Positions 1-15,444 of a stretch of 23,857 bases of DNA are shown piece by piece. Each line of letters begins with the position of its first letter. Position 1 is the stretch's first letter. Both the position numbers and the translations under genes were made by a program. Source of the stretch: Candidatus Marsarchaeota archaeon (lineage in GTDB: Archaea; Micrarchaeota; Micrarchaeia; Micrarchaeales; Micrarchaeaceae); NCBI GenBank assembly GCA_023485505.1, contig JAMCZN010000041.1, positions 1 through 23,857 on the forward strand, written 5' to 3'. The notes under the pieces were generated by a model. The model was not told the origin of the DNA. It saw only the letters and a program-made list of their open reading frames with translations, and made no database searches.

Positions 1-956
1 ACACCACCATTAGATATTATTCTTTTCGTTATAAGTCCTCTGTCTTCACATATTCGTATGAAAAGTAGTCTATTAATAAGTACATAGATTGATTCCTTAC
101 AAAATACCTGCTTATTCTCCTCCTCCTTATCATCTGGTCTGTTTGAAAGTGCTTTCCAAATATAATATCCTGAAAATGTTGAAAATTTCTTATATCTGCC
201 CTCAGTTTTTAATTCGTACCTTGCTATCTCGGCAGCTTGCTTTCTGTTATCTCCATTATGTTTTTTCATTTCTTCTAATTCATCTTTAGTTTGTTTATAC
301 TGCGCATAGTTGGCATAATATTCATCAAACGCAGAATAGGTGTACTGGCGCAATATATCATTTGAGATGTAATTTAGTTGTTCTATAAGTTTATCAAAGC
401 CTACATCCTCTGCTACATCTATTTTAGCGTAATATGGATCAAAAATACCATATTTTGCTTCGCTCCATATCTGTTCTTTTGTTATGTTATTCAAAAAAAG
501 AATCTGTTCTGTTTCTTTTGTAGAAATTTTGCTTTCTGTTGTTCTCTTTGAATTTATAAGATTCAAAAAGTCTATATCAGATTTTAGGATTTTTTCTCTA
601 CCAGTAATCTCCCATAATATGAACCTGTAACCATTGGTAAGACCTACAAAATGTGTTGAAGAATCTGCATATTTACCTGCTTGATCCCGCCATGTTTGGG
701 CGTCTAAATTCTCTTTTGGCCGTTTTGTCTCTATTACAACTATACGATTTTTGTTTTCATCAAGAAGTGTTATATCTGTCCTACTACGTTCAAACGTGTA
801 GTCCGACCCTTCATATCCTAAAACGCCCTCTATCAGATATTTAGCTAGTCTTGGACTAAAATCATGCTCAAGCGAATCTATAGTTATCTCGCTGTTTATC
901 TTCTTAAAAGCGAGTAAGATTTTGTCTGTGAAACTTAAATCTTGTTTAGAAATCAT
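1..956 (-). CDS. Restriction-modification enzyme, N-terminal part. It has an HsdR_N/Mrr-like PD-(D/E)xK nuclease domain and a helical spacer, and is probably type IIG or type ISP. The 3' end runs off the window.
   Basis: This gene is absent from the supplied ORF track because it has no stop codon within the window; I translated it by hand. ATG lies at 956-954 on the minus strand, and at least 318 codons are open down to position 3. The N-terminus is MISKQDLSFTDKILLAFKKINSEITIDSLEHDFSPRLAKYLIEGVLGYEGSDYTFERSRTDITLLDENKNRIVVIETKRPKENLDAQTWRD. The DITLLDE...IVVIETKRP segment is a classic D-x(n)-(D/E)-x-K nuclease core of the HsdR_N/Mrr type. About 190 aa downstream is the motif INRLLFIRICEDRGLI. 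I recognise this as the conserved helix that precedes the gamma-class N6-adenine methyltransferase domain in type IIG/IIL enzymes (MmeI-like) and in BREX PglX. No Walker A helicase motif appears in the 318 aa, which argues against a type I HsdR. Confidence 0.6.
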   Translation of the reverse strand, partial: MISKQDLSFTDKILLAFKKINSEITIDSLEHDFSPRLAKYLIEGVLGYEGSDYTFERSRTDITLLDENKNRIVVIETKRPKENLDAQTWRDQAGKYADSSTHFVGLTNGYRFILWEITGREKILKSDIDFLNLINSKRTTESKISTKETEQILFLNNITKEQIWSEAKYGIFDPYYAKIDVAEDVGFDKLIEQLNYISNDILRQYTYSAFDEYYANYAQYKQTKDELEEMKKHNGDNRKQAAEIARYELKTEGRYKKFSTFSGYYIWKALSNRPDDKEEENKQVFCKESIYVLINRLLFIRICEDRGLITKRIISNGG

Positions 957-965
957 TTTGCCAAC

Positions 966-2045
966 CTATTCTAATTTCTTTTGCCCTACCTCCTCACCTT
1001 TAAATATTCCGCTTTTCCACATTTTCTCAACGAAATAGCTAGTTATTTCCTTCTCTGGTAATTCTTTCCAGACAACTTTGTATTTGGTATTTTCAGTAAC
1101 CTCGCCGTTATCCCTTTCTACCAAACCCATCTTGACAAAGTTTTCCATAGCTGTTGAAACAAGTTGGGTTTTAAACTGAATTCTTTCTGTAGCACCGTTG
1201 CTATCTACTATATAAGGCAATGAGTAGAGCTTATTTAGATACTTAATTAACTTTGACAATTTTACTTCAAACACATTTTCTCCTGTCCTATACCACTCCA
1301 AAATTATATCCTTATCAGATTTTTTATTTATTTCAGGAAATATTTGCGCCCATAATAGTTGCATTACATATACTATCGGAGTTGCGCCATTATTCTCTTC
1401 AAATATTTTAAACATTCCAATTTCTTTATCTAGTTCTCCTCTGTAATAACTTATTTTTCCTCTCTTTATCTTATTTTCAATTTCACTAGAACTCAATGTT
1501 CCCCATTCATATGATATTCGTATCTGTTCCGTATTAGCTAATGGTTCAACAACATATACTAAAAGAATAAATTTTCGCTCAAATGCGCTTTTTTGTTTAT
1601 CAAGGAAATCAAATTTTAATACAGCCATTGCATCGGTACATCCCTGTGGAGCAAGTAATATTAAATCATGATTCTTTATGCCGATATTAGAAATGTTAAT
1701 ATCATATGATTTTAGTTGCTTAATTAGGTCATTTTCTATAAACGTCTTTAGATAATCTTCTTCAGAAACAAAAATTTGCCTGTTATTAGGATTCGGCAGC
1801 GACCTTTTGGCATCTCCAACTATTGCAAATTTTGGCAATTTTATTATTATATCTGGAGTAGGCGAATTTTTGTCATTTGGAATAATCCTTCCGCCAAAGT
1901 AAAACTCGCCACCTTCACTTTTTGTGAATTTGTACAAAGCAATAAGAGATTTTAATAAACGCTGGTAATTGTTTATATCAGCAGCTATCTCTCTCTTCTT
2001 GCTTTCCAAGCCCTCTGGATCTTTATCAGACATTTTGAATTTCAC
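966..2045 (-). CDS. Hypothetical protein of 359 aa (356 aa from the ATG at 2033). Candidate PD-(D/E)xK nuclease-fold protein, second gene of the island operon.
   Basis: Long ORF in the AT-rich island. The track start at 2045 is GTG. An ATG at 2033-2031 overlaps the stop of the upstream gene in the string ATGTCTGA, which indicates translational coupling. The segment SPTPDIIIKLPKFAIVGDAKRS fits the PD-x(12)-(D/E)xK spacing. I recognise no other family signature. Confidence 0.55.
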   Translation of the reverse strand: MKFKMSDKDPEGLESKKREIAADINNYQRLLKSLIALYKFTKSEGGEFYFGGRIIPNDKNSPTPDIIIKLPKFAIVGDAKRSLPNPNNRQIFVSEEDYLKTFIENDLIKQLKSYDINISNIGIKNHDLILLAPQGCTDAMAVLKFDFLDKQKSAFERKFILLVYVVEPLANTEQIRISYEWGTLSSSEIENKIKRGKISYYRGELDKEIGMFKIFEENNGATPIVYVMQLLWAQIFPEINKKSDKDIILEWYRTGENVFEVKLSKLIKYLNKLYSLPYIVDSNGATERIQFKTQLVSTAMENFVKMGLVERDNGEVTENTKYKVVWKELPEKEITSYFVEKMWKSGIFKGEEVGQKKLE

Positions 2046-3105
2046 CCTCGTAATTCTCAGTTAGAAAAGACAGCAATCGGTTAAATACTGTTGGAGTAAC
2101 TTGTGTCTGCGGTATTATATGTATTTCATTTGAAGCGGGAACCGTTATATCAAAAGAACCTCCAGAAACGTAATCCAATACATTCAATTCTATAAAAAAT
2201 TTGTTTAAAGAAATTATTGAATACCCCCATTTTGGCAATCCCTTTATTACTTCAATAAATTTAAGCGCATCATTTTCTTCTAGGAACAACTCACTCTTCA
2301 ATTTTATCTTTATAGGTTTTGCAACTACATCATCAAAACTTCTTGCCCTATTTTCTAAGGTGTTTTTATATAGTTCATCATTCCATGTTTTCAATAACTC
2401 TTCTAAAACAAAGACAAAGAACTTGGCGAAACCCATATTTCTATATGAGAATATCCCGTCCCTGCCTATCCTTAGTTTACTAACCGCATCTGACTCGGAT
2501 TTTCCCTTTAGATTAACTACGATGCTATCTACCCACATATGTTCACTAACAGCGTTCAAAAACAAGTCGGAGTAAGGAGTCTTAGCAAAACATAGCCTCG
2601 TTTCTTTTTTGCCGTAATATCTCTTGACAACATAGCGTTGGGCTTCTATGTCCGTCTCGGTTGTCTTTTCTATGCGTCCAAGTAGCTTTAATAGTTCTAC
2701 AGAGCTAAAGAATGTTCTTGATATTAAAGGATAGTAACTTCTGAAAAATGCCAATTGTACATTCTTAAAGTCTATATGTTTTGCATTACTAAGGATTATT
2801 CCAATAGGCCACTCTTTTAAATTTATCAACAAACAGCTTGGTTCTAAATCTTTCCCATATAATTTTAATCTGAATTTAAATATATCGCCAATTTCACTTT
2901 TATCAATTTCGAAAGTTGTACCGTCAAACGCAGCTGGCATGTGCTTTTTGAACAACTCTGCCATGCTATATCTTTTATCATAAGTGCAGATTGCAACTTT
3001 AGGAGGAGTACCGCTAACTTCACCAAATAGGCGTTCTATCGTAATAAAAAATTTACGCTTATTCTGATCTAGCATGCCGTATTCTTCTATTTTCATTGAA
3101 ACCAT
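2026..3105 (-). CDS. Hypothetical protein of 359 aa, first gene of the island operon.
   Basis: ATG at 3105-3103. An AT-rich TATA-like stretch lies 25-35 nt upstream on the minus strand, consistent with a leaderless transcript. The ORF is 1080 nt and uninterrupted in roughly 30% GC DNA, which is unlikely by chance because AT-rich sequence is stop-codon rich. I recognise no family. Confidence 0.5.
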   Translation of the reverse strand: MVSMKIEEYGMLDQNKRKFFITIERLFGEVSGTPPKVAICTYDKRYSMAELFKKHMPAAFDGTTFEIDKSEIGDIFKFRLKLYGKDLEPSCLLINLKEWPIGIILSNAKHIDFKNVQLAFFRSYYPLISRTFFSSVELLKLLGRIEKTTETDIEAQRYVVKRYYGKKETRLCFAKTPYSDLFLNAVSEHMWVDSIVVNLKGKSESDAVSKLRIGRDGIFSYRNMGFAKFFVFVLEELLKTWNDELYKNTLENRARSFDDVVAKPIKIKLKSELFLEENDALKFIEVIKGLPKWGYSIISLNKFFIELNVLDYVSGGSFDITVPASNEIHIIPQTQVTPTVFNRLLSFLTENYEGEIQNV

Positions 3106-3206
3106 TCTAAATTAGGTTGACGCTATTCTTTAATTCTAAGCATTTAACGCTCTTATGCCTTTCTGATTATGGTTGGCTCTATCATTAGGCACTTCTCAAT
3201 AAGCCT

Positions 3207-3247
3207 GATTGGACTCCTTGATGCTATTTACAAGCCGTAGTCCAATC
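3207..3247. repeat. Inverted repeat of 9 bp with a 23-nt spacer (GATTGGACT ... AGTCCAATC) in the intergenic region between the AT-rich island and the GC-rich RNA locus.
   Basis: Positions 3207-3215 are the exact reverse complement of 3239-3247. Confidence 0.5.
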
Positions 3248-3344
3248 CAATTATTGCCCCGATTAGGTTTATAATCTCGTTCCCGCTTCCGGATTTGCGC
3301 CTAGCCATAGTAGTATATCTCAGCAAAGAATTATCAGTTTTATG

Positions 3345-3650
3345 GTAAGGAAACCTATAATCCTTAAGCTACGCCAACACGTTCATCCTACAGATTCACG
3401 TGGGCTAGCGTCCCCACGGACAGCAAGCTGGCAACCCAGCAAGCGGCTGATTTTGCGGGGGGTCAAAATCAGCCTTAACGCCGCCATGTCTTACAAGGTA
3501 GCCGCGGCAGCCGTAGCCCGCCGTGCGACACCAAAGGTGTCTTCTGGGCGGGCGGAGGCTGCGTGGCGGGGTTTCTCTACACGAAACTCTACATGGACGG
3601 CTATAATATTGATGTGCAGTCATGTAGAGAGAAAATAGCCTCATTTTGAG
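3345..3650. ncRNA. GC-rich, highly structured non-coding RNA locus of about 300 nt. Class is unassigned; SRP/7S RNA or RNase P RNA are the size-compatible candidates.
   Basis: GC content jumps to over 60% for about 280 nt between AT-rich flanks. The only ORFs here are two overlapping low-complexity frames on opposite strands, which is typical of GC-rich RNA. Extensive nested complementarity is present. An 11-bp perfect hairpin spans 3445-3474. A 6-bp hairpin spans 3527-3541. A long interrupted helix pairs 3481-3486 with 3564-3569, 3508-3512 with 3557-3561 and 3516-3522 with 3547-3553. The CAGCAAGC octamer is duplicated at 3421 and 3437. CTCTACA occurs three times (3575, 3587, and inverted at 3622). 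A TATA-like box at about 3313-3320 and a T-rich tract after a hairpin at about 3636-3680 suggest plus-strand expression, but strand is not proven. Confidence 0.4.
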
Positions 3651-3700: not shown

Positions 3701-4861
3701 TCATGGCTGCATCCAGTCAATCTCATAATACTCGTATTCGCTCTTTGGAAGGCTAATGCGCCTTATCTTGTAATAGGTCACTGCAGTTTCCCTGTCGGCT
3801 ATGGCAACAATGAGCTCCAGCCTGTGCTCCTTCGCTTCGTTTATTATGGCCGAAAGCTCGGCTCCGCCTATGAACTCGTCTTCGCTTATGGACAGCATGG
3901 CGAACCTTGGCCTGTCCTTTCCGGGGGTCTCTATGTTCCCATCCTTCCTGTGGTACAGTACGAAATCCATCAGAAGCTTTTTCTTCCGGCTTTTTCCCGG
4001 GATGGCAAGGATGAACGTCTTCCTTACGGAATGCGCGACCCTTATGGCGCGTGCCCATTCTGAAATGAGGAGCTTAGCGTCCCTTGGGAACACGTGTATG
4101 ACGTGCTTTGAATGCACCCAGTCTTCGTTTCCCCTTATTGGCCTTGCGCCTGGAAAATAAATCCTGAAATGCGTGCCGAACTTGAAGCCCGTCTTCACAA
4201 CATAGCCCTTGCTCCTCCAGTCCGCATAAACCTGATACAGCTTTGGAAAATCCTTTCGTCTCTTTGTTGCCATTTTTATTATCTCCGATTTGCTGTAGTT
4301 CCTTACGTTTAGGGACTTGTTTTCCATAAGGAAAATGGTTTCGTATGCGTCAAGCTTGTTTAGTATGCCCCTTTCGCTTATCTTGTAGGTGCCGTATTGC
4401 CCGAACCATTGTTCGCTATATATCTCCTTGCCCTTTTCCGAATCGTCCACTATGCACATAAGGTCTTCGGGAAAGAATAGCCCTTCAAGCCTGTAGTTTT
4501 TGAGCTTGAATTGCGATGATGGGTAACCCTTTATTGGGGTTTTGTTCCCATCCTTTGACAATTGGATCTCTTCTGGCTTCTTTATTATCAGTCCCCTGTC
4601 CCTCCAGTCCTTGTATGTGAAATATCGTGCCATTAGCTTTCCGGAAAATCCGAACCTTTCGACAAGCCCGTTGAAGTGAAGTTTTTCCCCGTTGTCTCTG
4701 CATTCGGCATTTCTGACGTCAATAAGGTATAGGGCTTCTTCTGGGCTGAGGTGCAAAGTCCCATCTTTAAGAGTGCCTATATGGCCCTTCATCAGTATGT
4801 CTTTTGACGACTGGTCAGTAACGACTACCCTGTTCGTATCTCTTATTTCAAGTAAAAGCAA
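3701..4861 (-). CDS. endA: tRNA-splicing endonuclease EndA, 386 aa, multi-unit fused form.
   Basis: The N-domain motif HLSPEEALYL is present. The catalytic-domain motif is LYQVYADWRSKGYVVKTGFKFGTHFRIYFPG ... HSKHVIHVFP. An upstream degenerate copy, ARYFTYKDWRDRGLIIKKPEE, indicates an internal duplication with one pseudo-catalytic unit. The C-terminus reads LELIVAIADRETAVTYYKIRR. The track start is TTG. At 386 aa the protein is larger than the roughly 180-aa alpha4 and roughly 290-350-aa alpha'2 forms. Confidence 0.8.
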   Translation of the reverse strand: MLLLEIRDTNRVVVTDQSSKDILMKGHIGTLKDGTLHLSPEEALYLIDVRNAECRDNGEKLHFNGLVERFGFSGKLMARYFTYKDWRDRGLIIKKPEEIQLSKDGNKTPIKGYPSSQFKLKNYRLEGLFFPEDLMCIVDDSEKGKEIYSEQWFGQYGTYKISERGILNKLDAYETIFLMENKSLNVRNYSKSEIIKMATKRRKDFPKLYQVYADWRSKGYVVKTGFKFGTHFRIYFPGARPIRGNEDWVHSKHVIHVFPRDAKLLISEWARAIRVAHSVRKTFILAIPGKSRKKKLLMDFVLYHRKDGNIETPGKDRPRFAMLSISEDEFIGGAELSAIINEAKEHRLELIVAIADRETAVTYYKIRRISLPKSEYEYYEIDWMQP

Positions 4862-5773: not shown

Positions 5774-6736
5774 TTAATCCTTAACTCCATTGGTGGTTAT
5801 CTTTATAACACATTCCCCTTCTGGCTGGCTCGGAGAATCGACAAGCCTCACTATTCTCTTCTCTTCCTTGCTCTTCCTCATGTACAGCCTCGTAGTTGCA
5901 GCATGAGCGATGACGTTTCCGCCTATTGGCGTTGTCGGGTCGCCGAACATTATTCCGGGATTGTCCATTACCTGGTTTGTGACGTATACCGCAAGGTTGT
6001 ACTTGTCCGCAAGCATCTGCAGCCTGTGTATATGGGAGTTGAGCTTTTGTTGCCTTTCGCCAAGAGCGCCCCTGCCAAGGTATTCCGCCCTGAACAAAGA
6101 TGTGAGCGAATCCACTATTATCAGTTTTATGTTCTTTTCCTGTATTAGCTTGTCCGCCCTTTCAAGCGTAAGTATCTGTTGTTCGGTAGTCATGGCCCTT
6201 ACTACGACTATGTTTCCGAGCACCGTCTTTGGGTCAAGGTCTTCGGCCTTTGCAATCTCAGCTATCCTTTCCGGCCTGAATGTCCCCTCGCTGTCTATAA
6301 AGAAGACAGCCCCGTCAAGGCCACCCTTGTCCCTCGGAAGCTGCGCATTTACAGAGAGCTGGAATGCGATCTGTGATTTGCCGCTGGAGAACTTTCCATA
6401 TGCCTCTGTTATGCCATTGGTCTCAACTCCCCCGCCAAGCATCTCGTCAAGGTCCTTTGATCCAGTGGTAATCCTGCCTATGGCCTTCCTTTTCTCAAGT
6501 ATCTGTTCTCCAGTTTCATAATTTACTGTTGTCGATTCCTGCGCGGCGGCTATTGCCTTTTTTGCAGCGTCAACGCTGATTCCGGACAGTTCTGAAAGGT
6601 CATGCGGAGAATAAACGGCGATCTTATCAAGAGTGTCAACGCCCGCGCTCCTTAGCTTCTCGGCGGTAGTCTCCCCTATGCCGGGCAAGTCCTCCAGTTC
6701 TCTGATAGCCTTATCTTTGGCCATTAAAACACCCAC
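5774..6736 (-). CDS. radA: DNA repair and recombination protein RadA.
   Basis: N-terminal HhH segment (LEDLPGIGETTAEKLRSAGVDTLDKIA), Walker A (GKFSSGKSQ) and the RecA-fold core. Length is 320 aa. Confidence 0.9.
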   Translation of the reverse strand: MGVLMAKDKAIRELEDLPGIGETTAEKLRSAGVDTLDKIAVYSPHDLSELSGISVDAAKKAIAAAQESTTVNYETGEQILEKRKAIGRITTGSKDLDEMLGGGVETNGITEAYGKFSSGKSQIAFQLSVNAQLPRDKGGLDGAVFFIDSEGTFRPERIAEIAKAEDLDPKTVLGNIVVVRAMTTEQQILTLERADKLIQEKNIKLIIVDSLTSLFRAEYLGRGALGERQQKLNSHIHRLQMLADKYNLAVYVTNQVMDNPGIMFGDPTTPIGGNVIAHAATTRLYMRKSKEEKRIVRLVDSPSQPEGECVIKITTNGVKD

Positions 6737-6794
6737 AATAAGCGCTTATACTACGTCTATGAAGTTTATAGACCTTTGCTTGTTGTGCGATGAT

Positions 6795-7175
6795 TTATGT
6801 TGGCTTTCCGTTCTTATTCCGATTCGCTACCTTGCCAACAAAGTGGATTACAAGCAGCGCAATTGCAAACCATATGATGAAATCGAGGAATGCTCCAAAG
6901 TAATTATATGAAAAAACACATCCGGATGGCGGATGTCCGTATATCGTTTGCGGACAGAACACATTGCCTACTGAAAAGAAATCGAAGCCAAAACCAGACA
7001 TTGATGTCAGATATGGCGCTATCGCCAATCCGACCATCGCACCGATTACCGCCGATATTATTGTTTCGAAAATAAATCGCATAATGGGATATGGATTTAT
7101 CGGCTTTAAAACTTTTGAAAGCGTTTGGTTTCTAGATAAATCTGCTCTTTGTCTTGTTGCGAACAAAAACTTCAT
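6795..7175 (-). CDS. Small integral membrane protein, hypothetical.
   Basis: The 126-aa product has 3-4 predicted hydrophobic helices and no recognisable family. Confidence 0.4.
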   Translation of the reverse strand: MKFLFATRQRADLSRNQTLSKVLKPINPYPIMRFIFETIISAVIGAMVGLAIAPYLTSMSGFGFDFFSVGNVFCPQTIYGHPPSGCVFSYNYFGAFLDFIIWFAIALLVIHFVGKVANRNKNGKPT

Positions 7176-7235
7176 CCAATCAGAATATCGGTTAAATTAA
7201 CGGATATGCTTGTCATAGGAAAGCAATCACTATGC

Positions 7236-8039
7236 CTACAGCTCCCCATCTATGTAATGTTTTGACGCGGATATTGCAGAATCCCAAGGTGCCTTTTCTG
7301 CTACAAGGTGAAAGTCGTTCCCTTTTTCTAATATGTATTTATCGATACTACCAATATTGGCGCCTTGCTTTTGCATTTCTTTCAAAATATAGCTATATGA
7401 CGGCATCTTTATTGAAAGCACACCGACCGGACCATCAGTTAGATTCGCTATCGCATGGGCATAGCCGGCGGGTATGCCGACTACCGTTGCAGCGTCATAC
7501 ATGCCGCCAACTGCATAAAGAGATCCTGCTGTTGAAATTGAATCGGCAAATTTGTTTTCGCTTACCATAAACACTGGTGCCCCCAACCAACCAATCTTTA
7601 CTTCCATTCCGTTTGCAGCACAGTAATGCATGTGATAATGCAATGGTCCTGAAACCCCTGGAGGTATGATGTCGTATGTCACTTCAAATGGCGCTGATGA
7701 GCCTTTTGGAGTCAATGGGACGAACAATGCCCCATCGAGATACATATGGGCTCCCGTCGGTATTTCATACGGTTTTCTTACAAGCCGGAGAGTGCTCTCG
7801 TTTACAATGTCGGACATGCCAGCAAGCTCCATCGCCTTACGGACCATCCTTTCTATATAATCGCCCTTAAGAATTGGGCTCCTATTCGGAAAACTAACGT
7901 TTTCGTATTTTATTTCTGAGGGTACTGTTGGCATGTTATCAAGCATTTGACGAGTTTCCTGATATTTAAGCGTTTGGAATTGAAGTACTGTCAGCATTCT
8001 GCCGATTTTCAATAACGGATCCCCTCTTAAGGGCCTCAT
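7236..8039 (-). CDS. Cupin-fold protein. Possibly a metal-dependent sugar-phosphate isomerase or epimerase-like protein; function uncertain.
   Basis: The segment PPGVSGPLHYHMHY...ME resembles the cupin motif G(x)5HxH...E. The product is 267 aa. The likely start is an internal Met at 7997, which reduces the overlap with the upstream gene. Confidence 0.45.
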   Translation of the reverse strand: MRPLRGDPLLKIGRMLTVLQFQTLKYQETRQMLDNMPTVPSEIKYENVSFPNRSPILKGDYIERMVRKAMELAGMSDIVNESTLRLVRKPYEIPTGAHMYLDGALFVPLTPKGSSAPFEVTYDIIPPGVSGPLHYHMHYCAANGMEVKIGWLGAPVFMVSENKFADSISTAGSLYAVGGMYDAATVVGIPAGYAHAIANLTDGPVGVLSIKMPSYSYILKEMQKQGANIGSIDKYILEKGNDFHLVAEKAPWDSAISASKHYIDGEL

Positions 8040-8748
8040 TTACGCAGTTTACCAGAGCAAGTGCCTTCCTCGTGGCAGACCATCTCTGAATTTCACCGTC
8101 CTGTTGGGGATCCTTTGCCAAATAGCCCATTTTTACCAGATCTTCTATCGCTATGGGCTGTCTTCCAAACGAAAGCCCCCTCATCCTTGCCATCGTCACA
8201 TAGCCGCTGGCGCAGCAAGCTCCAATTATCAGCACATCCCTTACGGTAAGGCCGTTATCTATTGCCTCTTTAAGAAGCTCCTCGTTCGTGCGCTTATGGC
8301 CTTTTGCACCCCTTAAAAGCCCGCTCGCCGAACCTATTTCGACATATGTGCTTAAAATATCTGTCATGTCCTGCACTATCGCCCTGGAGCGCTGTGTTGC
8401 ATGGATCATGTGGTCGTCACCAATGCGTTCCACCAGTATGTTCCTTCTTGATATGTCGTATGGCGCGCTTCTGCGAGATTTGACTTTTTCTACATGCTCT
8501 GGTGCGTGCTGGTTTGCCATTTCAAAGAAATGCTTATAATCAGTTACGCCATTCCTGAGCAGCTTGTCCAATGCAAGCAGGCGTCCAAGAGCCATGTTCC
8601 CCTGAAGCCTTCGTTCACGGAAAACCTGCTTGTAAATACGGTATATTTGGCGCCATGGCATCGCCATTTCATTAACTTCAGCTACGGAATTAACGCCGTC
8701 TATCGGCACTTGCATTGCCCCTCTTGCGGTTGAAACCATGTAAATCAT
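7966..8748 (-). CDS. Hypothetical protein of 260 aa.
   Basis: Long ORF. The GLTVRDVLIIGACCASGYVTMARMRGL segment is glycine- and cysteine-rich. I recognise no family. Confidence 0.45.
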   Translation of the reverse strand: MIYMVSTARGAMQVPIDGVNSVAEVNEMAMPWRQIYRIYKQVFRERRLQGNMALGRLLALDKLLRNGVTDYKHFFEMANQHAPEHVEKVKSRRSAPYDISRRNILVERIGDDHMIHATQRSRAIVQDMTDILSTYVEIGSASGLLRGAKGHKRTNEELLKEAIDNGLTVRDVLIIGACCASGYVTMARMRGLSFGRQPIAIEDLVKMGYLAKDPQQDGEIQRWSATRKALALVNCVNEALKRGSVIENRQNADSTSIPNA

Positions 8749-8900
8749 CTTTTCCTCAGATTTTTCAGATATTTATGCGTGACTGCATCCGCTTGGACTC
8801 TATTTGCGTATTGGATTGCTTCAATTTCCGAGAGCAACCAATCAGATAGATATTTAAACAACCGGAGCATTAGCTATACCATCTTTAAAAGAAGAAATAG

Positions 8901-8926
8901 TGCCAGCGTGGAAATACACGCTGGCA
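8901..8926. repeat. Perfect 10-bp hairpin (TGCCAGCGTG gaaata CACGCTGGCA) in the 5' intergenic region of the DUF92 gene.
   Basis: The two arms are exact reverse complements. Confidence 0.5.
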
Positions 8927-9062
8927 AGGCGACCAGTTCTTCACGACCTTCCTACAGTAGAGAACCCGTAATAGAACTGCTGCAAACAGGTTTAAAAGCT
9001 TTACTGCAACAAGCCAAATAGGGGAATTATCAGTCGATATTCCAATAAAATGGAAGGTAAAT

Positions 9063-9848
9063 ATGGGTCTTTTGACACTAGATGTGAGGGGCATTTCCAT
9101 GGCGCTTTTGATAGCCCTTGCGATGCTCGCATTTGGGTATGCCACAAGCCCGGCAAGCCTCAACCATTTCGCCAAATCCTCGCTCGGTATATTCTATGTC
9201 ATAACCATGGTGTACTTCCTTTTCCTTTCAGCCATAGTCACTAGAGCGGGAAAGATGTATAAGCGGATCATAAACCAGTACCAGAGGCCGAGGGGCTTCA
9301 AGAACGTGCTTGCAAACGGGAGCGGCCCGCTAATTTTCATCATAATTGCCGCAATAGTGCAGGTCTCTTATGCCGGTTCCGGGATGTATCTCACCTCAAC
9401 CGGCTATGGATCCTACACTTTTGCACTTATAGTCGGATTCGTGGCCAGCGTAGCCGCAGTCACGTCCGATAAGTTCAGCAGCGAGATAGGCATACTTGAC
9501 GGAAAACCAACGTCATTGGTCACCTTCAAGAAGGTCAAGAAGGGGACTTCCGGCGGTGTGACGTGGGTCGGTCTTTTGTCAGGGCTACTTGGGGCATTTC
9601 TCATATCTCTTCCGTTTGCCCTTGAACAGGTCATGTACTATGGCACGCTTAGTGTCGCTCCGTTGGCCATAATAGTGCTTACGATGTCGGTGATAACGCT
9701 AAGCGGCTTTATTGGCACCATTGTAGACTCATTCCTGGGCCATTATGAAGAGAAGGGGATAGGCAACAAGTACACATCCAATTTCTTTTGCAGCCTTGCA
9801 GGTGGAGGGGTGGCGGTATTGTTAGTGCTGGTGCTTGGCCTGTTTTAA
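9063..9848 (+). CDS. DUF92/TIGR00297-family integral membrane protein.
   Basis: A multi-pass membrane profile and the glycine-rich motif KKGTSGGVTWVGLLSG, which is characteristic of the DUF92 family. Length is 261 aa. Confidence 0.55.
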   Translation: MGLLTLDVRGISMALLIALAMLAFGYATSPASLNHFAKSSLGIFYVITMVYFLFLSAIVTRAGKMYKRIINQYQRPRGFKNVLANGSGPLIFIIIAAIVQVSYAGSGMYLTSTGYGSYTFALIVGFVASVAAVTSDKFSSEIGILDGKPTSLVTFKKVKKGTSGGVTWVGLLSGLLGAFLISLPFALEQVMYYGTLSVAPLAIIVLTMSVITLSGFIGTIVDSFLGHYEEKGIGNKYTSNFFCSLAGGGVAVLLVLVLGLF

Positions 9849-10303
9849 CCCTTGGTTATGTTGAATGTCGCAGTTGTTCCGCAGGTTGCAGATGGTGCTG
9901 CGGAGTATGTGTTCATCACTATGGAGTAATTGCCAGATGGGAGCGAAGTCTCGTTTTCGGAGTAGCCGCACGCTCTTGTATTAACGGAGATGTTTCCCTT
10001 GCTTGATGAGACCACCACGGTAGCATTTGATGTTCCAGCAGTAAGCTGCACTATCATTGCACCGCCCGGCCACGCACAGCTCTTCTTTATGTATGCGTAG
10101 GAATGAGTCGTGGTAAGCTGATAATCGTTACAAGAAGTAAGAGAGGACGTGTTATTCGTCGCGCTGTTTGATGTTGTAGTGTGATTGGATGCGGAAACCT
10201 GAACTGCGGTGAACGAGGGCGCCCCATTTATAACGTATGCGCTGGCCACGCCCAGTATTGCGGCTATGATCATAGATGTTACGTAAAGCGCAACTGGTTT
10301 CAT
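9845..10303 (-). CDS. Secreted Ser/Thr-rich protein, hypothetical.
   Basis: N-terminal signal peptide MKPVALYVTSMIIAAILGVASAYV. Composition is Thr/Ser/Asn-rich with possible glycosylation sequons. Length is 152 aa. Confidence 0.45.
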   Translation of the reverse strand: MKPVALYVTSMIIAAILGVASAYVINGAPSFTAVQVSASNHTTTSNSATNNTSSLTSCNDYQLTTTHSYAYIKKSCAWPGGAMIVQLTAGTSNATVVVSSSKGNISVNTRACGYSENETSLPSGNYSIVMNTYSAAPSATCGTTATFNITKG

Positions 10304-10413: not shown

Positions 10414-10539
10414 CGCCAGGGTAGGGATTTGAACCCTAAAGCCCCGAAGGGCACCGGTTTGCCTGTTTCGCATCACTAATCAGCTCTTGATATTTTAAAA
10501 ACTCAAGACCGGCGCATTACCGGATTCTGCCACCCTGGC
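10414..10539 (-). tRNA. tRNA-Ser(UGA) with a 42-nt intron at the canonical 37/38 position.
   Basis: I folded the cloverleaf by hand. The acceptor is GCCAGGG/CCCTGGC with discriminator G73. The anticodon stem is CCGGT/ACCGG and the loop is CT-TGA-G. A long variable arm (GCCC-UUCG-GGGC) marks it as class II. The T-arm is TAGGG-TTCAAAT-CCCTA. The intron forms a canonical bulge-helix-bulge. Exon CTTG (positions 32-35) pairs with intron CAGG. The two 3-nt bulges are AG|T and CA|A. An intron-internal UUUU/GAAA helix is also present. Confidence 0.85.
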
Positions 10540-10596: not shown

Positions 10597-11457
10597 TCAT
10601 TTCCTTTTCCTCACAACAAAGATCATGCGATATTCGCCGGGCGTAAGGGGTTTGACGGTATAGTTTCCGTATACGGCAAGTACATCAAGACCGTTAGCTT
10701 TGCACATCTTTTCAAGCTCCTCTTTTGAATACAGCCTTACTTTCGTAATCTTCGTGCTTATCTTTTTCATGGAGTTCTTTCCGTCCTTGATCAGGGTGGT
10801 TTTTATCACCCATGTGTCTTTCCTTACCTTGTTTTCCACTATCCGGAACATGCCATTATCGAGATAATCCGCAACAATCGGCATCATTTTTTCTATCGTT
10901 GGATCCTTGTTGTGTGTGTCAAGTACCAATATGCCGCCAGGCCTAAGGACCCTTGCAAACTCCTTCACGGTCTTCATGTTATCGGATTCATTGAAATAGC
11001 CGAATGATGTGAACAGGTTTGCAACGACATCAAAACTGCCATTAGGATATGGAAGTCTCCTCATGTCCGCCACCATATACCTGTCCTTGAATTTCGGAGA
11101 GCGGGATTTTGCCGTTTCTATGAACCCTTTTTCGATATCCGCGCCATACACGTCGAAGCCTTCATCCCTTAGATAGACATCGTGCCTTCCGAGGCCGCAT
11201 GGAACATTGAGCACTTTGTTTGGGTGTTCGCCGAACTTCCTGCCCCAGAACCTGATTAGCATGGCGAAATACGCGGCTTCCATTTCGGCCCTTTGCAGCA
11301 CATGCCTGTCTGCTATGTGCCATAATCCAGATATTTCCCCTACTGTGCGCTTGGGCTTGTTCATCTTATCAGTATACTTTAATGCACATAATTTATCTAT
11401 TTGTTGTTTAAATCGGGATCTGGCCATTGAAGGTGTCAAATTTAAAAACCATTTCAT
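10597..11457 (-). CDS. Class I SAM-dependent methyltransferase.
   Basis: Motif I (VLNVPCGLGRHDVYL), then acidic loop, then FDVVANLF, then LRPGGILVL. The track start at 11517 would overlap the divergent neighbour by 45 nt, so an internal ATG at 11457, 11427 or 11364 is more likely. Confidence 0.7.
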   Translation of the reverse strand: MKWFLNLTPSMARSRFKQQIDKLCALKYTDKMNKPKRTVGEISGLWHIADRHVLQRAEMEAAYFAMLIRFWGRKFGEHPNKVLNVPCGLGRHDVYLRDEGFDVYGADIEKGFIETAKSRSPKFKDRYMVADMRRLPYPNGSFDVVANLFTSFGYFNESDNMKTVKEFARVLRPGGILVLDTHNKDPTIEKMMPIVADYLDNGMFRIVENKVRKDTWVIKTTLIKDGKNSMKKISTKITKVRLYSKEELEKMCKANGLDVLAVYGNYTVKPLTPGEYRMIFVVRKRK

Positions 11458-11472
11458 CGATAATATCTTATC

Positions 11473-12339
11473 ATGAACAAGATAACGGCGATACTCAGGC
11501 TTACAAGGATAGAGCACTCTTTGATGCTGATAGTCGCGGTAGTGGCCGCGGAGATGGTCTCTGGAGGCATTCCCTCTTTTCCAATACTGATAAGCAGCCT
11601 CGTATCTCCCGCGCTGGTAAGCATGGGCGCATTCGCGATAAACGACTTCTATGACGTAAAGGCAGATATTGCAAACAAGAGGTTTGAGAGGCCACTGGTG
11701 GCTAAGGCGATATCGCCGCAGGTTGCGATCATGGTCTCTCTCCTGTGCCTGGTTATCGGGACCACATTGAGCATGTTCATAAACCTCTATGCCTTCGCCA
11801 TTGCGATAATATTTGCGGCTCTTGCACTGCTATACAGCTACAAACTTAAGGACCTGCTCCTATGGGGCAACGTATACATAGCGTTCACAATGGTGATACC
11901 TTTCGTATATGGGGACCTGGTAGTTGCGCCTTCGATAAACATGGACATAGTGTTGATATCATTTGTCGTGTTCCTTAGCGGACTTGCGCGTGAGATACAC
12001 GGAATGATACGGGACGCAAAGGGCGACAAGAGGGCAAGGAGGTCAAGGAACCTTATCCAATATGTGGGGATAAACAATTCATCGGCAATAGCCCTGATAT
12101 TATATGCTGAAGCGATAGTGATAAGCATATTCATGTTCCTTTACAGCATGCCGTTCCTTTACAACATAGTTTACATAGTGCCAATAGCCATTTCTGACAT
12201 AATGCTTGCTTATGTCGCAGTTGGCTACAGGTTCAAGAGCAATAGAAGGTTCTTCGACATGTCAAGAAACCTCAGCCTGGGTGCAATGGGGCTTGCTTTG
12301 CTCGCTTATCTTCTAGCTTCCGTAGTATACCTTGTGTGA
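11473..12339 (+). CDS. UbiA-family prenyltransferase, probably a digeranylgeranylglyceryl phosphate synthase-like enzyme.
   Basis: Eight or nine transmembrane helices. The aspartate-rich motif AINDFYDVKADIANKR (NDxxDxxxD) sits at the cytoplasmic end of TM2. A second D-rich region is also present. Confidence 0.75.
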   Translation: MNKITAILRLTRIEHSLMLIVAVVAAEMVSGGIPSFPILISSLVSPALVSMGAFAINDFYDVKADIANKRFERPLVAKAISPQVAIMVSLLCLVIGTTLSMFINLYAFAIAIIFAALALLYSYKLKDLLLWGNVYIAFTMVIPFVYGDLVVAPSINMDIVLISFVVFLSGLAREIHGMIRDAKGDKRARRSRNLIQYVGINNSSAIALILYAEAIVISIFMFLYSMPFLYNIVYIVPIAISDIMLAYVAVGYRFKSNRRFFDMSRNLSLGAMGLALLAYLLASVVYLV

Positions 12340-12415
12340 ACCTGTCAGCGTCTGGAAAAATCAGATAAAAAAAAGAAAATAGCAGGAGCCCTATTCGGCC
12401 CCTGCCCCCAACCAC

Positions 12416-14203
12416 CTAGGAAGTTACCGTCGACTTTGGCAGATTCTTCTCAGTGCTCGTCTCCGTTTGGCCCGTTCTCAGGAAGCTTTTTACCAATTCT
12501 CCCACGGTCTTGCCGGCGTTTGCCGGATTTGTGAGTATTGATATCAGTTTGTCCTGGGTTTCTGGGCTCAGTCCGGCTACCTGCAACTCCTGCGCAAGGG
12601 CTATGCCCTGTTCAGGTCCGACCAGTATCTCACCGAGCAATCCGCCGCTTGTCAGCTTTTGCGGGTTATCGGTAATCAGGTTGATGTTCGCGCGTCCTGC
12701 CACCTGTGCCATCGCTTCTGCCCTCTTCAGATTGACGACCTGCCATGCATCAATCTTCTTGGCGTCAAGCGCCGCATGTCCGCCGCCAGTGGCATCCATG
12801 TATTCCTTCTGCGCCTTGGCCTGCTCCCTGGTGCCGTTTGCTTGCCCGACCAATTTTGCCTGGATGGCTTCTCCGTCCGCTTTACCCATTGCGGCTATCT
12901 TGGCGGCTTCTCCCTCTCCCTCCGCTCTTGCCCTTGCTCCGGCGCCTTCTCCCTCTGCCGTAAGCCTTGCCTTCGTTCCGGCTCCTTCCAGTTCTGCCTT
13001 CTCTTTCGAGGCCTGTGCCTCAAGGATGGTCTGCTGCTTGTTGGCCTCTGCCACCAGAATCTTTGTCCTGTTGTCCGCTTCAGCCTCCTTTATTCTCTTT
13101 TCCTTCTGGGCATCGGCATTGGTTATGGTCACCGTCCTGCTATAGTCGGCAGTACCCGTTTGCAGGGCCCTTTCCGCCCCTACCTTCTTCTCGTTGGTCT
13201 CCTTCGTTGCATCCTGCACCGCCTGTTCCATCTGCTGCTTTGCGACGCCAAGTTCCTTATCCTTCTGGAAATCCCTCTTTCCGGCCAGTTCTGAATTCTC
13301 GGCCTCTGCTATCTCAGCCTCCTTTTTCTGGGTTGCCACTACGACCCTCGCTTCCTTCTCCTGTTGTGCGACTATCTTCTTCGTATCTGCATCAACCACT
13401 GCCGCTCTCTGCCTTTGCAGGTTGTCTATGATCACGCTCCCGTCAGCATCTTTTATTACGGGAACCTCCACGTTTACAAGCTGCAATCCCCACTTAGGGA
13501 ACAGGTCTCTGACCTCCTTCTCCACCGCATGCTGCAGCTGATCCCTGTTCTTGAACAGGTCCATTATCGTGTGCTGCATTGCCGCTGTCCTGATGATTGA
13601 TTCGACCATTACCCTGAAGTCGTCATCGATCTCAATCCTCAGCCCGTTTGAATTGGCTCCCGGAGCGTTGCGCCCTTCATATGGCTCCCTGCTTCCAGTA
13701 ATCGTCGTCCTTTCTGCCGCCATTATCGGGTCTACCACGTGGACGAACGCCACCACATCGCACAGGAATTCTGCAAAATCCTTGTCGTTCAGTTTGATGT
13801 TTACTGCGCTTACCCTGAAGTTCGAAAGAGGTACGGTTATCGTTTTCTGGAATTTGCCGATCTTTGGATACACGGCGTTTGGAACCCTGTCCCTTTCACC
13901 GTAAACCGTGTGCTTTTCGTGGCTTTCCGGATCCTCCACCAGCACCGGGCGTTCTACTTCAACACCGGTTTCTGCGTCTTTCGTCTTCTTTGTTATCAGG
14001 AAGTACTCCTTTTTCCTTGCAGAATACTCGTGTACTCCGTGTCCGTCCGATACTACCACTGCGACGTTTGCTGGAATAACGTGTTGCCAACCAAACATAA
14101 TCTTAAGTCTGCTGGGCTGAACTATCCAGTTATCTTGTGCTAGCTTAGCAGATGCATCCTCCTGTGCATCGTTTCTGTTTTTTGTGTTGCTTTCTGTGGT
14201 CAT
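12416..14203 (-). CDS. Flotillin-like SPFH/band-7 domain protein with an EA-rich coiled-coil tail.
   Basis: An SPFH core (IPANVAVVVSDGHG...) is followed by about 250 aa of Glu/Ala/Lys/Gln-rich heptad repeats (AEGEGAGARARAEGEGEAAKIAAMGKADGEA), as in flotillin/YqiK. Length is 595 aa. No N-terminal transmembrane helix is apparent. Confidence 0.7.
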   Translation of the reverse strand: MTTESNTKNRNDAQEDASAKLAQDNWIVQPSRLKIMFGWQHVIPANVAVVVSDGHGVHEYSARKKEYFLITKKTKDAETGVEVERPVLVEDPESHEKHTVYGERDRVPNAVYPKIGKFQKTITVPLSNFRVSAVNIKLNDKDFAEFLCDVVAFVHVVDPIMAAERTTITGSREPYEGRNAPGANSNGLRIEIDDDFRVMVESIIRTAAMQHTIMDLFKNRDQLQHAVEKEVRDLFPKWGLQLVNVEVPVIKDADGSVIIDNLQRQRAAVVDADTKKIVAQQEKEARVVVATQKKEAEIAEAENSELAGKRDFQKDKELGVAKQQMEQAVQDATKETNEKKVGAERALQTGTADYSRTVTITNADAQKEKRIKEAEADNRTKILVAEANKQQTILEAQASKEKAELEGAGTKARLTAEGEGAGARARAEGEGEAAKIAAMGKADGEAIQAKLVGQANGTREQAKAQKEYMDATGGGHAALDAKKIDAWQVVNLKRAEAMAQVAGRANINLITDNPQKLTSGGLLGEILVGPEQGIALAQELQVAGLSPETQDKLISILTNPANAGKTVGELVKSFLRTGQTETSTEKNLPKSTVTS

Positions 14204-14397
14204 TTTATCACCAATACGAATGACCTTTTCCCGTTATTTACGCATATTTAATTGTTGAAATATTTTCCTTAATATTTGACTTTTTGTAAACTATGCGACG
14301 CAGCAACTTGCATATACGTGTTGGAAATGCAGTGGGAACCTTATAAATCAAGTAGTAAAAATCAAATTTGTTTGACAATTTTTGACCAAATGTAAAG

Positions 14398-14407
14398 TTT
14401 ATTATAT
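14398..14407 (+). promoter_or_regulatory. TATA box for the Lrp-like gene. It sits about 25 nt upstream of the ATG, consistent with a leaderless transcript.
   Basis: TTTATTATAT is followed by the ATG at 14428. TTTGAC repeats lie just upstream at about 14275, 14371 and 14382. Confidence 0.4.
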
Positions 14408-14427
14408 CTCTGGAGGAAAATAAGATT

Positions 14428-15444
14428 ATGGATTTCTTTACGAAAACCGAAAGGACGATCCTGGGCTCTCTGAGCGCCAATTCCAGGACATCCGTAACCG
14501 AGCTTGCAAAAGAAGCCAAGTGCTCAAGGGTAACCGCGGTAAAGAACCTGAATAGGCTTGAGAAGAGGTTCAACATCAGGTATACGCTGGAGATAGATGA
14601 AAGCAAGCTCGTTGGCTGCGAAAGGCACCTGCTGGCGATAAAATTCGTGAAGAAGCCTTCCGTCGCATTCCTTAAGGAGTTTTTCAAGAACGACGAGTTC
14701 GCCGAGGAGGTCTTTCTGCTCGATGGCCACTATGACCTTTTCATATTCGGATGGGCAGGGGATCCCGTAAGCTACATCAAATGGGAGACTTACCTTGCTT
14801 CAGAGCTTGCCGAGTTCAAGCCGGAGATAAGGTCAACAGAATTGGTAGTGTCCCTATTCGGATTCTGGCCGCTGAACGACTCTTTCGTGGACGAGATACA
14901 CGAATCCATAAAGCTGGACAAGGTTGACAGGAAGATGCTTGCCCTTCTTAACGAAGATTCCAGGATGTCACTATCGGATATGGCAAAAATGATGGAGATA
15001 GGGAGAGGAACGGTAAGATACCGCCTCTTCAGGCTAATGAAAAGCGGGATAATAAAGAGGTTCACGCTCGCTATCCAGAGCCCGCCGCAGAAATACCAAT
15101 TGCTTTACTTTGTGAACTATACCTTTAACAAGGGAGTGAGGGACAGGTTTCTCGAACTGAGAAGAAGGTACCAAAGCATGGACGACCAAGAGCATCCGAT
15201 ACTTGGCACTATACAGTTCGCAGCGCAGTTGAGCGGCAGTTTCAGGTCGTTCGGAATGGCAATCTCCAACACAGAAGAAGAGGCGATGGACAGCGTGATA
15301 GACATGAGCAAGGAGGTGTTGATGATGGACAACCCGGTAATCACCCATGCGCGGATCGTTAAAGTCATAAAGGGATTGCTGCCCCTAAGGAACCTGGATA
15401 TCAAGAGAAACTACATGAAAATAGACTGGATGCCAAACGACTGA
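14428..15444 (+). CDS. Tandem-duplicated Lrp/AsnC-family transcriptional regulator (two HTH plus RAM units in one polypeptide).
   Basis: Two HTH_AsnC-like segments are present: TERTILGSLSANSRTSVTELAKEAKCSRVTAVKNLNRLE at the N-terminus and DRKMLALLNEDSRMSLSDMAKMMEIGRGTVRYRLFRLMKSGII in the middle. Each is followed by a roughly 80-aa RAM-like domain. Length is 338 aa, about twice a normal Lrp. Confidence 0.7.
   Translation: MDFFTKTERTILGSLSANSRTSVTELAKEAKCSRVTAVKNLNRLEKRFNIRYTLEIDESKLVGCERHLLAIKFVKKPSVAFLKEFFKNDEFAEEVFLLDGHYDLFIFGWAGDPVSYIKWETYLASELAEFKPEIRSTELVVSLFGFWPLNDSFVDEIHESIKLDKVDRKMLALLNEDSRMSLSDMAKMMEIGRGTVRYRLFRLMKSGIIKRFTLAIQSPPQKYQLLYFVNYTFNKGVRDRFLELRRRYQSMDDQEHPILGTIQFAAQLSGSFRSFGMAISNTEEEAMDSVIDMSKEVLMMDNPVITHARIVKVIKGLLPLRNLDIKRNYMKIDWMPND

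Follow-up and report, generated by a model that had tools for sequence, protein, structure and literature searches.

We analysed a window of 23,857 nt, the whole of the stretch taken from contig JAMCZN010000041.1 of a Candidatus Marsarchaeota archaeon, in which three minus-strand genes, here called A, B and C, lie together in a low-GC island (Table 1). A preliminary description of this DNA reported A and B as two consecutive unknown genes, and the ORF coordinates (3105..2026 and 2045..966) confirm it. Gene C begins 9 nt after the B stop codon, so the three genes probably form one operon. C is 69% identical over 318 aa to a 1024-aa protein at a homologous locus, L018; that protein has HSDR_N_2, Eco57I, N6_Mtase and TaqI_C domains and matches the PADLOC Type IIG model at 5e-61. 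C itself matches HSDR_N_2 with an E-value of 2.9e-4, under the curated cut-off. The island abuts core chromosomal genes at ∼46% GC (tRNA-intron lyase, diphthine synthase and RadA), and we infer that it was horizontally acquired. An Rfam search of the GC-rich stretch beside the island gave no match.

Table 1. Features of the A-B locus, in window coordinates
Feature	Coordinates	Strand	Description
Gene A	2026..3105	-	Longest ORF from ATG 3105, 359 aa; annotated start ATG 3096, 356 aa; MCL5430559.1
Gene B	966..2033	-	ATG 2033, 355 aa; MCL5430558.1
Gene C	1..956	-	Type IIG restriction-methyltransferase enzyme, N-terminal part (>318 aa); truncated by the end of the window
Start/stop overlap ATGTCTGA	2026..2033	-	B start codon ATG 2033-2031 overlaps A stop codon TGA 2028-2026
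Shine-Dalgarno-like GAGGGTGA	2042..2049	-	8 nt upstream of B ATG; putative ribosome-binding site
B N-terminal PD-(D/E)xK nuclease-like domain	1419-2033	-	∼residues 1-205
B candidate catalytic motif PDIIIKLPKFAIVGDAKRS	1800..1856	-	P60-D61, 12 residues, D74-A75-K76
B C-terminal winged-helix region	999-1418	-	∼residues 206-345
Low-GC island (32-34% GC)	1..3300	.	Carries C, B and A; from composition

A and B are a conserved, co-inherited two-gene cassette. B lies directly downstream of A in all 16 distinct core A loci, with constant order, and six remote pairs (∼22–29% identity) are also adjacent and in the same order. When three of the upstream genes among these six were checked by hhalign they resembled A (probabilities of 99.5 for L032, 98.9 for L029 and 97.6 for pNG100), and two haloarchaeal downstream genes resembled B (97.3 for pNG100, 97.7 for Natrinema). 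Across 136 comparisons, the pairwise identities of A correlate with those of B (r = 0.93). Purifying selection is strong on both genes, with pN of 0.10–0.13 against a saturated pS of ∼0.8 between the window and L001.

The start/stop overlap reported earlier within ATGTCTGA is real. A single 8-nt overlap is on its own little proof of coupling; conservation across junctions adds weight. The start codon of B stands at −8 from the end of the A stop codon in 10 of 13 distinct junctions, again an 8-nt overlap, the start being ATG in nine of these and GTG in L014; the junctions compared span A-B pairs with protein identity down to ∼30%. The Shine-Dalgarno-like box GAGGGTGA is encoded within the conserved C-terminal YEGE codons of A, and homologous junctions have a similar box (GAGG, GGTGA or GGAGA) at the same place. 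Conservation of both overlap and upstream box across the family supports the translational coupling that had been proposed, with ATGTCTGA as its putative site.

The preliminary description also pointed to a candidate PD-(D/E)xK core in B, and this has held up. The motif PDIIIKLPKFAIVGDAKRS is present with PD-x12-DxK spacing, and it is conserved among 126 full-length family representatives reaching down to ∼17–20% identity: P60, D61 and the acidic residue at position 74 (E/D) are found in 126/126, K76 in 120/126. The AF2 model of B (pLDDT 80) has a core running helix, three strands, helix, strand in a mixed sheet, the order expected for PD-(D/E)xK nucleases. D61 stands just before beta2 (62–65), and D74 and K76 at the end of beta3 (70–75), matching the superfamily pattern of a conserved acid at the start of beta2 and (D/E)xK in beta3. 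Both a nuclease-like predicted fold and conserved motif residues, on which the earlier proposal had been made to depend, were found. We regard B as a good PD-(D/E)xK nuclease candidate, predicted to cleave DNA.

The C-terminal part of the B model consists of winged-helix domains resembling those of ORC/Cdc6, plasmid RepA and KITE (JetB). A nuclease core joined to winged-helix domains is also the DpnI-type layout within the PD-(D/E)xK superfamily. However, B has no sequence-level match to Pfam, NCBIfam or PDB nuclease families, its structural scores are modest, and DpnI-type enzymes have no obligatory unrelated partner gene, whereas B has A. Sporadic weak Pfam matches of B-family members were to HSDR_N, AHJR-like and RE_TdeIII, and scanning 150 relatives of B and 27 of A yielded only sporadic sub-threshold family matches. 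The motif is intact in the Halosegnis marinus copy and eroded in that of Haloarcula marismortui pNG100; in all, the PD...ExK residues are eroded in three of four haloarchaeal copies, so nuclease activity does not extend to the whole of the wider B family.

Protein A is modelled (AF2, pLDDT 87) as three alpha+beta TBP/KA1-like domains. In structural comparison RdgC ranked first and CENP-L second, and KA1 and RnlA N-terminal domains also matched. RdgC and CENP-L/Iml3 share with A the tandem arrangement of TBP-like alpha+beta domains, but A has three of them and the sequence identity is 5–12%. RdgC is a DNA-ring protein; A is likened to it by predicted fold alone, has no RdgC Pfam match and falls outside the RdgC sequence family. 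RnlA and LsoA end in a helical HEPN domain, which A lacks: its third domain is modelled as alpha+beta with a five-strand sheet rather than as a helical bundle, and only the N-terminal-type TBP-like domains of RnlA align with A. No recognisable catalytic motif was found in A. The structural matches would reflect a common alpha+beta module rather than function, and any role assigned to A is a guess. A supposed link between Kiwa KwaB (DUF4868) and RdgC was dropped, as the Kiwa paper makes no mention of RdgC.

Searches of Pfam, NCBIfam, PADLOC and PHROGs gave no match for A or B, save weak winged-helix matches in B; for PADLOC there was none at E ≤ 1. PDB sequence searches with four profiles gave no match either. 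Viral relatives of the pair were sought in IMG/VR and among GenBank phages, with none found, and a viral origin was rejected on that ground.

The neighbourhoods of the pair bear out the suggestion that its homologues might co-occur with restriction-modification or other defence genes. Restriction genes lie within 10 kb in 11 of 13 core loci, an enrichment judged against an assumed background rate. The Type IIG gene adjoins A-B in the window, L015 and L018 and is 3 kb away in L001. Elsewhere the neighbours are Type III systems (L012 and L021), the MjaI endonuclease with its methylase (L010), a C5 methylase (L017), an N6_N4 methylase with an LmuB-like SMC ATPase (L007), Mrr (L014) and a Type ISP enzyme (L006). 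BrxL is found at L004 and L015, and integrases or a transposase at L001, L006, L007, L014 and L018. No defence neighbours were found at L009, L029 and L031. The haloarchaeal copies are plasmid-borne: that of Halosegnis is beside DUF1156 genes and an HNH endonuclease, that of Halosimplex has an SMC ATPase, an exonuclease and a DUF3883 gene nearby, that of Natrinema is beside ParA with nothing defence-like among its neighbours, and that of pNG100 is surrounded by hypothetical proteins only. Between the window and L018, the 69% identity of the Type IIG genes compares with 34% for A and 40% for B; the modules therefore shuffle independently.

We give about half of our belief to the reading that A and B are two subunits of a self-contained, mobile, nuclease-based and previously undescribed anti-invader cassette, as domain predictions and gene context suggest. 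The operon of A, B and, where present, the Type IIG gene would be transcribed from upstream of A, and ribosomes ending on A would re-initiate on B, giving a fixed A:B ratio. The two proteins would form a complex: B would bind DNA through the winged helices, with cleavage at a metal-dependent D61/D74/K76 site, and A, as a partner that binds DNA, senses or restrains, would determine when B cuts. Foreign DNA might be discriminated in a Type IV-like manner, or cutting might be triggered by DNA structure or an infection cue. No methyltransferase is part of the pair, and the pair recombines independently of neighbouring ones, which makes discrimination independent of a cognate methylase the more likely; the neighbouring methyltransferases belong to different classes and are each accompanied by a nuclease of their own. 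Type IV restriction enzymes, which need modified DNA, likewise have no cognate methyltransferase, a likeness that fits but is not diagnostic, and no known modified-base reader domain was found in A or B.

A broader proposal is more tentative still: A and B may form the heart of a new two-component immune system that occurs in DPANN and other archaea, on haloarchaeal plasmids and in at least one CPR bacterium. A partner with three TBP-like domains would control a PD-(D/E)xK/winged-helix nuclease, and in ARMAN-type archaea the pair would have been built into the same operons as Type IIG enzymes, short BrxL or HerA-like ATPases, giving hybrid systems of several layers. To our knowledge, such a three-TBP-like-domain partner is a protein type present in no described defence system. 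Archaeal immunity beyond CRISPR and classical restriction-modification is poorly charted, and A-B is a concrete, well-delimited candidate: its catalytic hypothesis (D61, D74, K76) is clear, its obligatory partner has an unusual fold, and its coupling signal is conserved. According to a 2026 survey of 7747 archaeal genomes, nearly one-third had no detected system beyond those two (PMC12988326). Relatives occur in the cultivable haloarchaea Halosegnis marinus and Haloarcula marismortui (pNG100), so mutational and challenge experiments are feasible.

An unlikely alternative, which overlaps the anti-invader reading and differs from it chiefly in the target (self or invader), is a toxin-antitoxin, addiction or abortive-infection module. 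B would be a DNA-cutting toxin and the coupled upstream A its antitoxin or sensor, stabilising the island or plasmid or killing infected cells. Type II toxin-antitoxin systems and RnlA-RnlB are likewise two overlapping, co-inherited genes on mobile DNA, and A-B is carried on islands and plasmids, once beside ParA (Natrinema); at L006, A is intact and next to a transposase B is truncated. However, Type II pairs are small, usually <150 aa, with a DNA-binding domain in the antitoxin. A and B, at 356 and 355 aa, are ∼3 times the usual size, A lacks HTH, RHH, AbrB and HEPN domains as well as any other recognisable repressor domain that binds DNA, and neither protein matches a toxin-antitoxin model or any other in PADLOC. 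From RnlA-RnlB the pair differs also in its nuclease, predicted here to have a PD-(D/E)xK DNA-type fold.

It is quite improbable, in our judgement, that the pair lacks autonomy and serves the neighbouring restriction or BREX-like machinery (Type IIG with or without BrxL) as accessory subunits. Packing is operon-tight with the Type IIG gene in the window (the 9-nt gap); at L015 the genes run Type IIG, A, B, BrxL, separated by 6, −8 and −4 nt; L004 is A-B-BrxL; and L001 and L018 have both a Type IIG gene and a HerA-like ATPase. Against this, some copies of the pair have unrelated Type II, Type III or C5 systems as neighbours and others have none; the Type IIG gene, which has its own nuclease motif, may precede or follow the pair, and its divergence is independent of that of A and B. 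BREX was considered in particular, since at some loci A-B shares an operon with a short BrxL (PADLOC 9e-118) and with a large gamma-class N6-adenine methyltransferase enzyme. The BREX core is PglZ, BrxC/PglY and PglX. PglZ and BrxC were found neither at L004 and L015 nor at any other locus, no BrxA or BrxB match was found, A and B match no BREX model, and the L015 methyltransferase scores as Type IIG (E = 0) rather than PglX (1.7e-16). BREX membership was rejected; RdgC and TBP-like components go unmentioned in a 2026 BREX survey.

ATPase-containing systems were also compared with the pair. The LmuB-like SMC ATPase directly upstream of A-B at L007 recalls Lamassu, the HerA-like ATPase at L001 and L018 matches mad8 of MADS weakly, and among B-family members one weakly matches the ABC-3C middle component MC7 and five match DUF4194 (JetB). 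Such ATPases are in a minority of loci, however, and A and B match no LmuA, LmuC or mad1-8 model. Lamassu and ABC-3C have an obligatory SMC-like ABC ATPase; an LmuB-like one adjoins our pair at L007 only and is missing from the other loci. MADS requires mad6-8 (bioRxiv 10.1101/2023.03.30.534895), and membership was rejected, the weak mad8-like ATPase being present in just two loci.

To a role outside defence, in maintenance or DNA processing (replication, segregation, recombination) for a mobile element, we assign the same low probability as to accessory subunits. The pair is on haloarchaeal plasmids, one copy is beside ParA and a Rep_1 gene lies upstream at one locus; the winged helices of B resemble those of ORC/Cdc6, plasmid RepA and KITE (JetB), A resembles the DNA-ring protein RdgC, and some plasmid copies can do without the nuclease motif. 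Yet most core-family copies are chromosomal island genes whose neighbours are restriction genes, not genes for replication or partition; the catalytic motif is essentially invariant in core members, and the winged-helix similarity is generic.

Finally, the preliminary description gave both genes an identical length of 359 codons and offered very old paralogy as one explanation. Mechanical ORF calling does yield 1080 nt for each minus-strand ORF, 359 aa plus stop, but B reaches 359 codons only from GTG 2045-2043, a codon inside GAGGGTGA; the ATG at 2033, on which the coupling argument itself relied, gives 355 aa. GenBank has B at 355 aa and A at 356 aa from ATG 3096, matching the methionine at which the closest A homologues begin, and lengths are unequal in 17 of 17 homologous pairs. 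With the coincident longest-ORF lengths as its sole support, the idea of ancient equal-length paralogues retains practically no probability and was rejected: BLASTP finds no A-B similarity (E > 1), hhalign of the family profiles, the comparison recommended earlier, gives a probability of 0.2%, and the two predicted folds are different and unrelated. The identical length is thus an artefact of start-codon choice, the GTG start of B being spurious, and it illustrates how a longest-ORF convention can yield a false signal of equal length.

The preliminary description had given A (the upstream gene) and B (the downstream one) an identical 359 codons. This equality proved to be an artefact of taking the longest ORF: the GTG opening the 359-codon second ORF (2045–2043) sits within the Shine-Dalgarno-like GAGGGTGA. 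Counted from the ATG at 2033 in ATGTCTGA, on which the coupling argument of that same description relies, the second protein is 355 aa. GenBank, on a 66.7-kb contig of a Candidatus Marsarchaeota MAG, lists each as "hypothetical protein": B as MCL5430558.1 (355 aa) and A as MCL5430559.1 (356 aa, from ATG 3096, a methionine that is the start also in the closest A homologues). Among homologous pairs (A 348–380 aa, B 344–376 aa) lengths were equal in none of 17. The proposed start/stop overlap was confirmed, and the junction is kept across homologues. In 10 of 13 distinct junctions the start codon of B (ATG in nine, GTG in L014) is at −8 relative to where the stop codon of A ends, and all 10 have a GAGG, GGTGA or GGAGA box inside the last codons of A; the codons for the C-terminal YEGEIxNV of A thus double as the predicted ribosome-binding site and the start of B. 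For translational coupling, a step predicted from sequence, this is good comparative support.

Coordinates of features in the window and at loci elsewhere carrying A-B homologues, with gene content of those loci
Location	Feature	Coordinates	Strand	Remarks
Window	C, next gene in row	from ATG 956, running off the window	-	starts 9 nt past B stop
Window	Second ORF (longest-ORF rule)	2045..966	-	1080 nt
Window	ATGTCTGA	2033..2026	-	ATG of B overlaps TGA of A by 8 nt
Window	GAGGGTGA, Shine-Dalgarno-like box	2049-2042	-	8 nt upstream of B's ATG
Window	First ORF, A (longest-ORF rule)	3105..2026	-	1080 nt
Window	GC-rich (~60%) intergenic stretch	3385-3615		between A and tRNA-intron lyase gene, at island boundary
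Window	tRNA-intron lyase	3701-4861	-	386 aa; matches N-terminal and catalytic domains
Window	tRNA	10414-10539	-	126 nt by Rfam, 45.7 bits; missed by ARAGORN
L001	Conserved trio	11145-14103		directly downstream of A-B; Type IIG enzyme and integrase nearby
L018	Conserved trio	12158-15101		directly downstream of A-B; Type IIG enzyme and integrase nearby
L018	Type IIG enzyme	6857-9931		Micrarchaeota MAG
L004	Short BrxL	1973-3418		A-B-BrxL; overlaps B stop by 4 nt
L015	Short BrxL	5988-7433		Type IIG enzyme, A, B, short BrxL; gaps 6, -8, -4 nt
L006 / L020	Truncated B with transposase	11040-13094		Methanomassiliicoccaceae MAG; Type ISP enzyme (L006)
L033	Remote A-B pair	824-3078		NC_006389.1, pNG100
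L012, L021	Type III Mod and Res
L010	MjaI endonuclease and its methylase
L017	C5 methylase
L007	LmuB-like SMC ATPase, integrase, N6_N4 methylase
L014	Mrr, integrase, M78/DUF4411 pair
L009, L029, L031	No recognisable defence genes nearby

Between the window and the L001 pair (78–83% identical), pN was 0.13 for A and 0.10 for B at a saturated pS of ~0.8; both genes are under strong purifying selection. The suggestion that they are ancient paralogues is refuted: BLASTP found no similarity between them, the pairwise hhalign comparison of the two family alignments gave a probability of 0.2%, and their predicted folds are unrelated.

Word-indexed searches returned 15 A relatives and 5 B relatives, none with an annotation. 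An exhaustive profile search of 1.84 billion representatives placed B relatives in 233 clusters at 50% identity, nearly all of 320–375 aa with full-length matches. A with the IIPQTQ motif occurs in 6 of 185,579 species genomes, its hosts being Pacearchaeota, Micrarchaeota, Nanoarchaeota, Thermoplasmatales, Methanomassiliicoccaceae and one CPR bacterium (Buchananbacteria). Viral collections yielded no relatives of either gene. The cassette is a rare one, found for the most part in small-genome archaea that have not been cultivated, and its genes are always annotated as hypothetical. Its two genes stay together: B lies directly downstream of A in 16/16 distinct core loci encoding A, and the genes preceding two remote B relatives (~22–29% identity) are A relatives (hhalign probabilities 99.5 and 98.9). 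Over 136 comparisons the pairwise identity of A tracks that of B (r = 0.93), which shows that both genes have been inherited and have diverged as a unit. A and B are very probably functional partners.

A candidate PD-(D/E)xK core had been proposed for B, and it stands as a prediction: the model shows a nuclease-like fold, and the acidic and lysine residues of the motif are conserved. The AF2 model (pLDDT 80, pTM 0.80) has a long N-terminal helix (6–39), strands at 43–46, 62–65 and 70–75, a helix at 91–108 and a strand at 122–129, which in the model is the classical PD-(D/E)xK order. P60-D61 directly precedes strand two, and D74 and K76 are found where strand three ends. Among 126 full-length family representatives, reaching down to ~17–20% identity, P60, D61 and E/D74 (116 E, 10 D) are present in every one, K76 in 120, Q106 in 116 and Y110 in 125. 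Foldseek gave no significant E-value for the B model (best 0.013); its top list was mostly restriction-like nucleases (R2 endonuclease domain, PaqCI at probability 0.96, BsaXI, EcoT38I, YaeQ). Family members gave weak, sporadic matches to HSDR_N, AHJR-like, RE_TdeIII and DUF4194/JetB. B is likely a nuclease-fold protein with an intact site, best placed by fold order and motif as a new PD-(D/E)xK family of predicted activity; its nuclease plus winged-helix layout recalls DpnI.

A is modelled by AF2 (pLDDT 86.7, pTM 0.86) as three alpha+beta domains of TBP/KA1-like type. Even a 27-member alignment gave no family or PDB sequence match, and no catalytic signature was seen. R215, R255 and D311 (numbered on the 359-aa version) are invariant out to haloarchaeal copies, and D193 nearly so; domains 1 and 2 are basic (pI ~9) and domain 3 acidic (pI 4.7). 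The likeness of A to RdgC and CENP-L is confined to the fold, and on testing A belonged to neither the RdgC nor the RnlA family. That the pair is a toxin–antitoxin or addiction module, whose two-gene architecture and mobile carriers it shares, seems unlikely, given that both proteins are very large and A carries no repressor-type domain. A-B was also compared with classical type II toxin–antitoxin systems, BREX, MADS and Lamassu, on a defining feature of each, and belonged to none of them.

The first 3.3 kb of the window have 32–34% GC vs ~46% in the rest, which holds core genes (tRNA-intron lyase, diphthine synthase, RadA and ribosomal protein S2); the island bearing A, B and C thus appears to have been acquired. 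C encodes the N-terminal portion of a Type IIG restriction-methyltransferase. The C product carries a D...ExK nuclease motif of its own and a sub-threshold HSDR_N_2 match, and shares 69% identity with the complete 1024-aa L018 enzyme (HSDR_N_2, Eco57I, N6_Mtase, TaqI_C).

Of the 13 core loci whose flanks could be used, 11 have restriction genes within 10 kb, immediately adjacent in six, which upholds the link to such genes; against an assumed background, we judge this proximity far above that of a random locus. The methyltransferases nearby are of different classes, mostly accompanied by a nuclease of their own. The window and L018 copies of the Type IIG gene are 69% identical, those of A only 34% and of B 40%, and the Type IIG gene lies on opposite sides of A-B in the two loci. 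A-B is therefore an autonomous module recombining within defence islands and does not supply a nuclease that one given methylase lacks. The comparison also suggests that lineages recently exchanged the restriction gene independently of A-B. The operonic packing seen in the ARMAN-type clade would suit a role of A and B as accessory subunits of the Type IIG or BrxL machinery, which we consider improbable since those partners vary or are missing at other loci.

Some loci carry further genes. The trio at L001 and L018 comprises a protein of 105 aa (81% identity from one locus to the other), a 637-aa HerA/DUF87-like ATPase (PADLOC mad8, 1e-13) and a 140–148-aa protein, and may either extend the A-B system or form an uncharacterised module in its own right. 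The short BrxL at L004 and L015 (481 aa; PADLOC 9e-118) is an ATPase without the Lon domain; PglZ and BrxC are absent from both loci, and this BrxL stands outside any recognised BREX type. At L006/L020, A is intact and B is cut to 166 aa, followed by a 95-aa ORF and a DDE transposase; this looks like a decaying copy.

More distant pairs were found by tblastn on plasmids of cultivated haloarchaeal strains (L033–L036): Haloarcula marismortui pNG100, Natrinema sp. DC36, Halosegnis marinus and Halosimplex aquaticum (hhalign probabilities 97–98 for the members tested). The PD...ExK residues are eroded in three of the four, to PT...DVI in pNG100 and PD...AK[V/I] in Natrinema and Halosimplex, and intact only in Halosegnis marinus. 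Natrinema and Halosimplex have in common an extra upstream gene (440–461 aa, 25% identical). This erosion, the plasmid carriage (one copy adjoining ParA), the ORC/RepA/KITE-like winged helices of B and the RdgC-like fold of A all speak for element maintenance or DNA processing, which we nonetheless regard as a long shot.

A-B is a putative nuclease-based cassette on defence islands with a type of partner unseen in described systems. The operon would be transcribed from upstream of A, with termination-reinitiation at ATGTCTGA fixing the A:B ratio. The two proteins would assemble into a complex in which B contacts DNA through its winged helices and cuts at a D61/D74/K76 metal site, its access or activation governed by A. 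Since A-B includes no methylase gene, self/non-self discrimination would probably be independent of a cognate methylase, either in a Type IV-like manner or in response to a structure or an infection cue. We give this defence scheme as a whole about even chances; with its function predicted, A-B is a coherent, testable candidate and a solid lead for specialists in archaeal immunity.

Two RNA-related features were noted elsewhere in the window. The tRNA match missed by ARAGORN therefore probably has an intron. Rfam returned nothing at E ≤ 1 for the GC-rich stretch, whose predicted folding on either strand is much more stable than that of shuffled controls (z = −5.3, −5.4); a structured RNA that has escaped annotation may be encoded there, perhaps one at which the island integrated.
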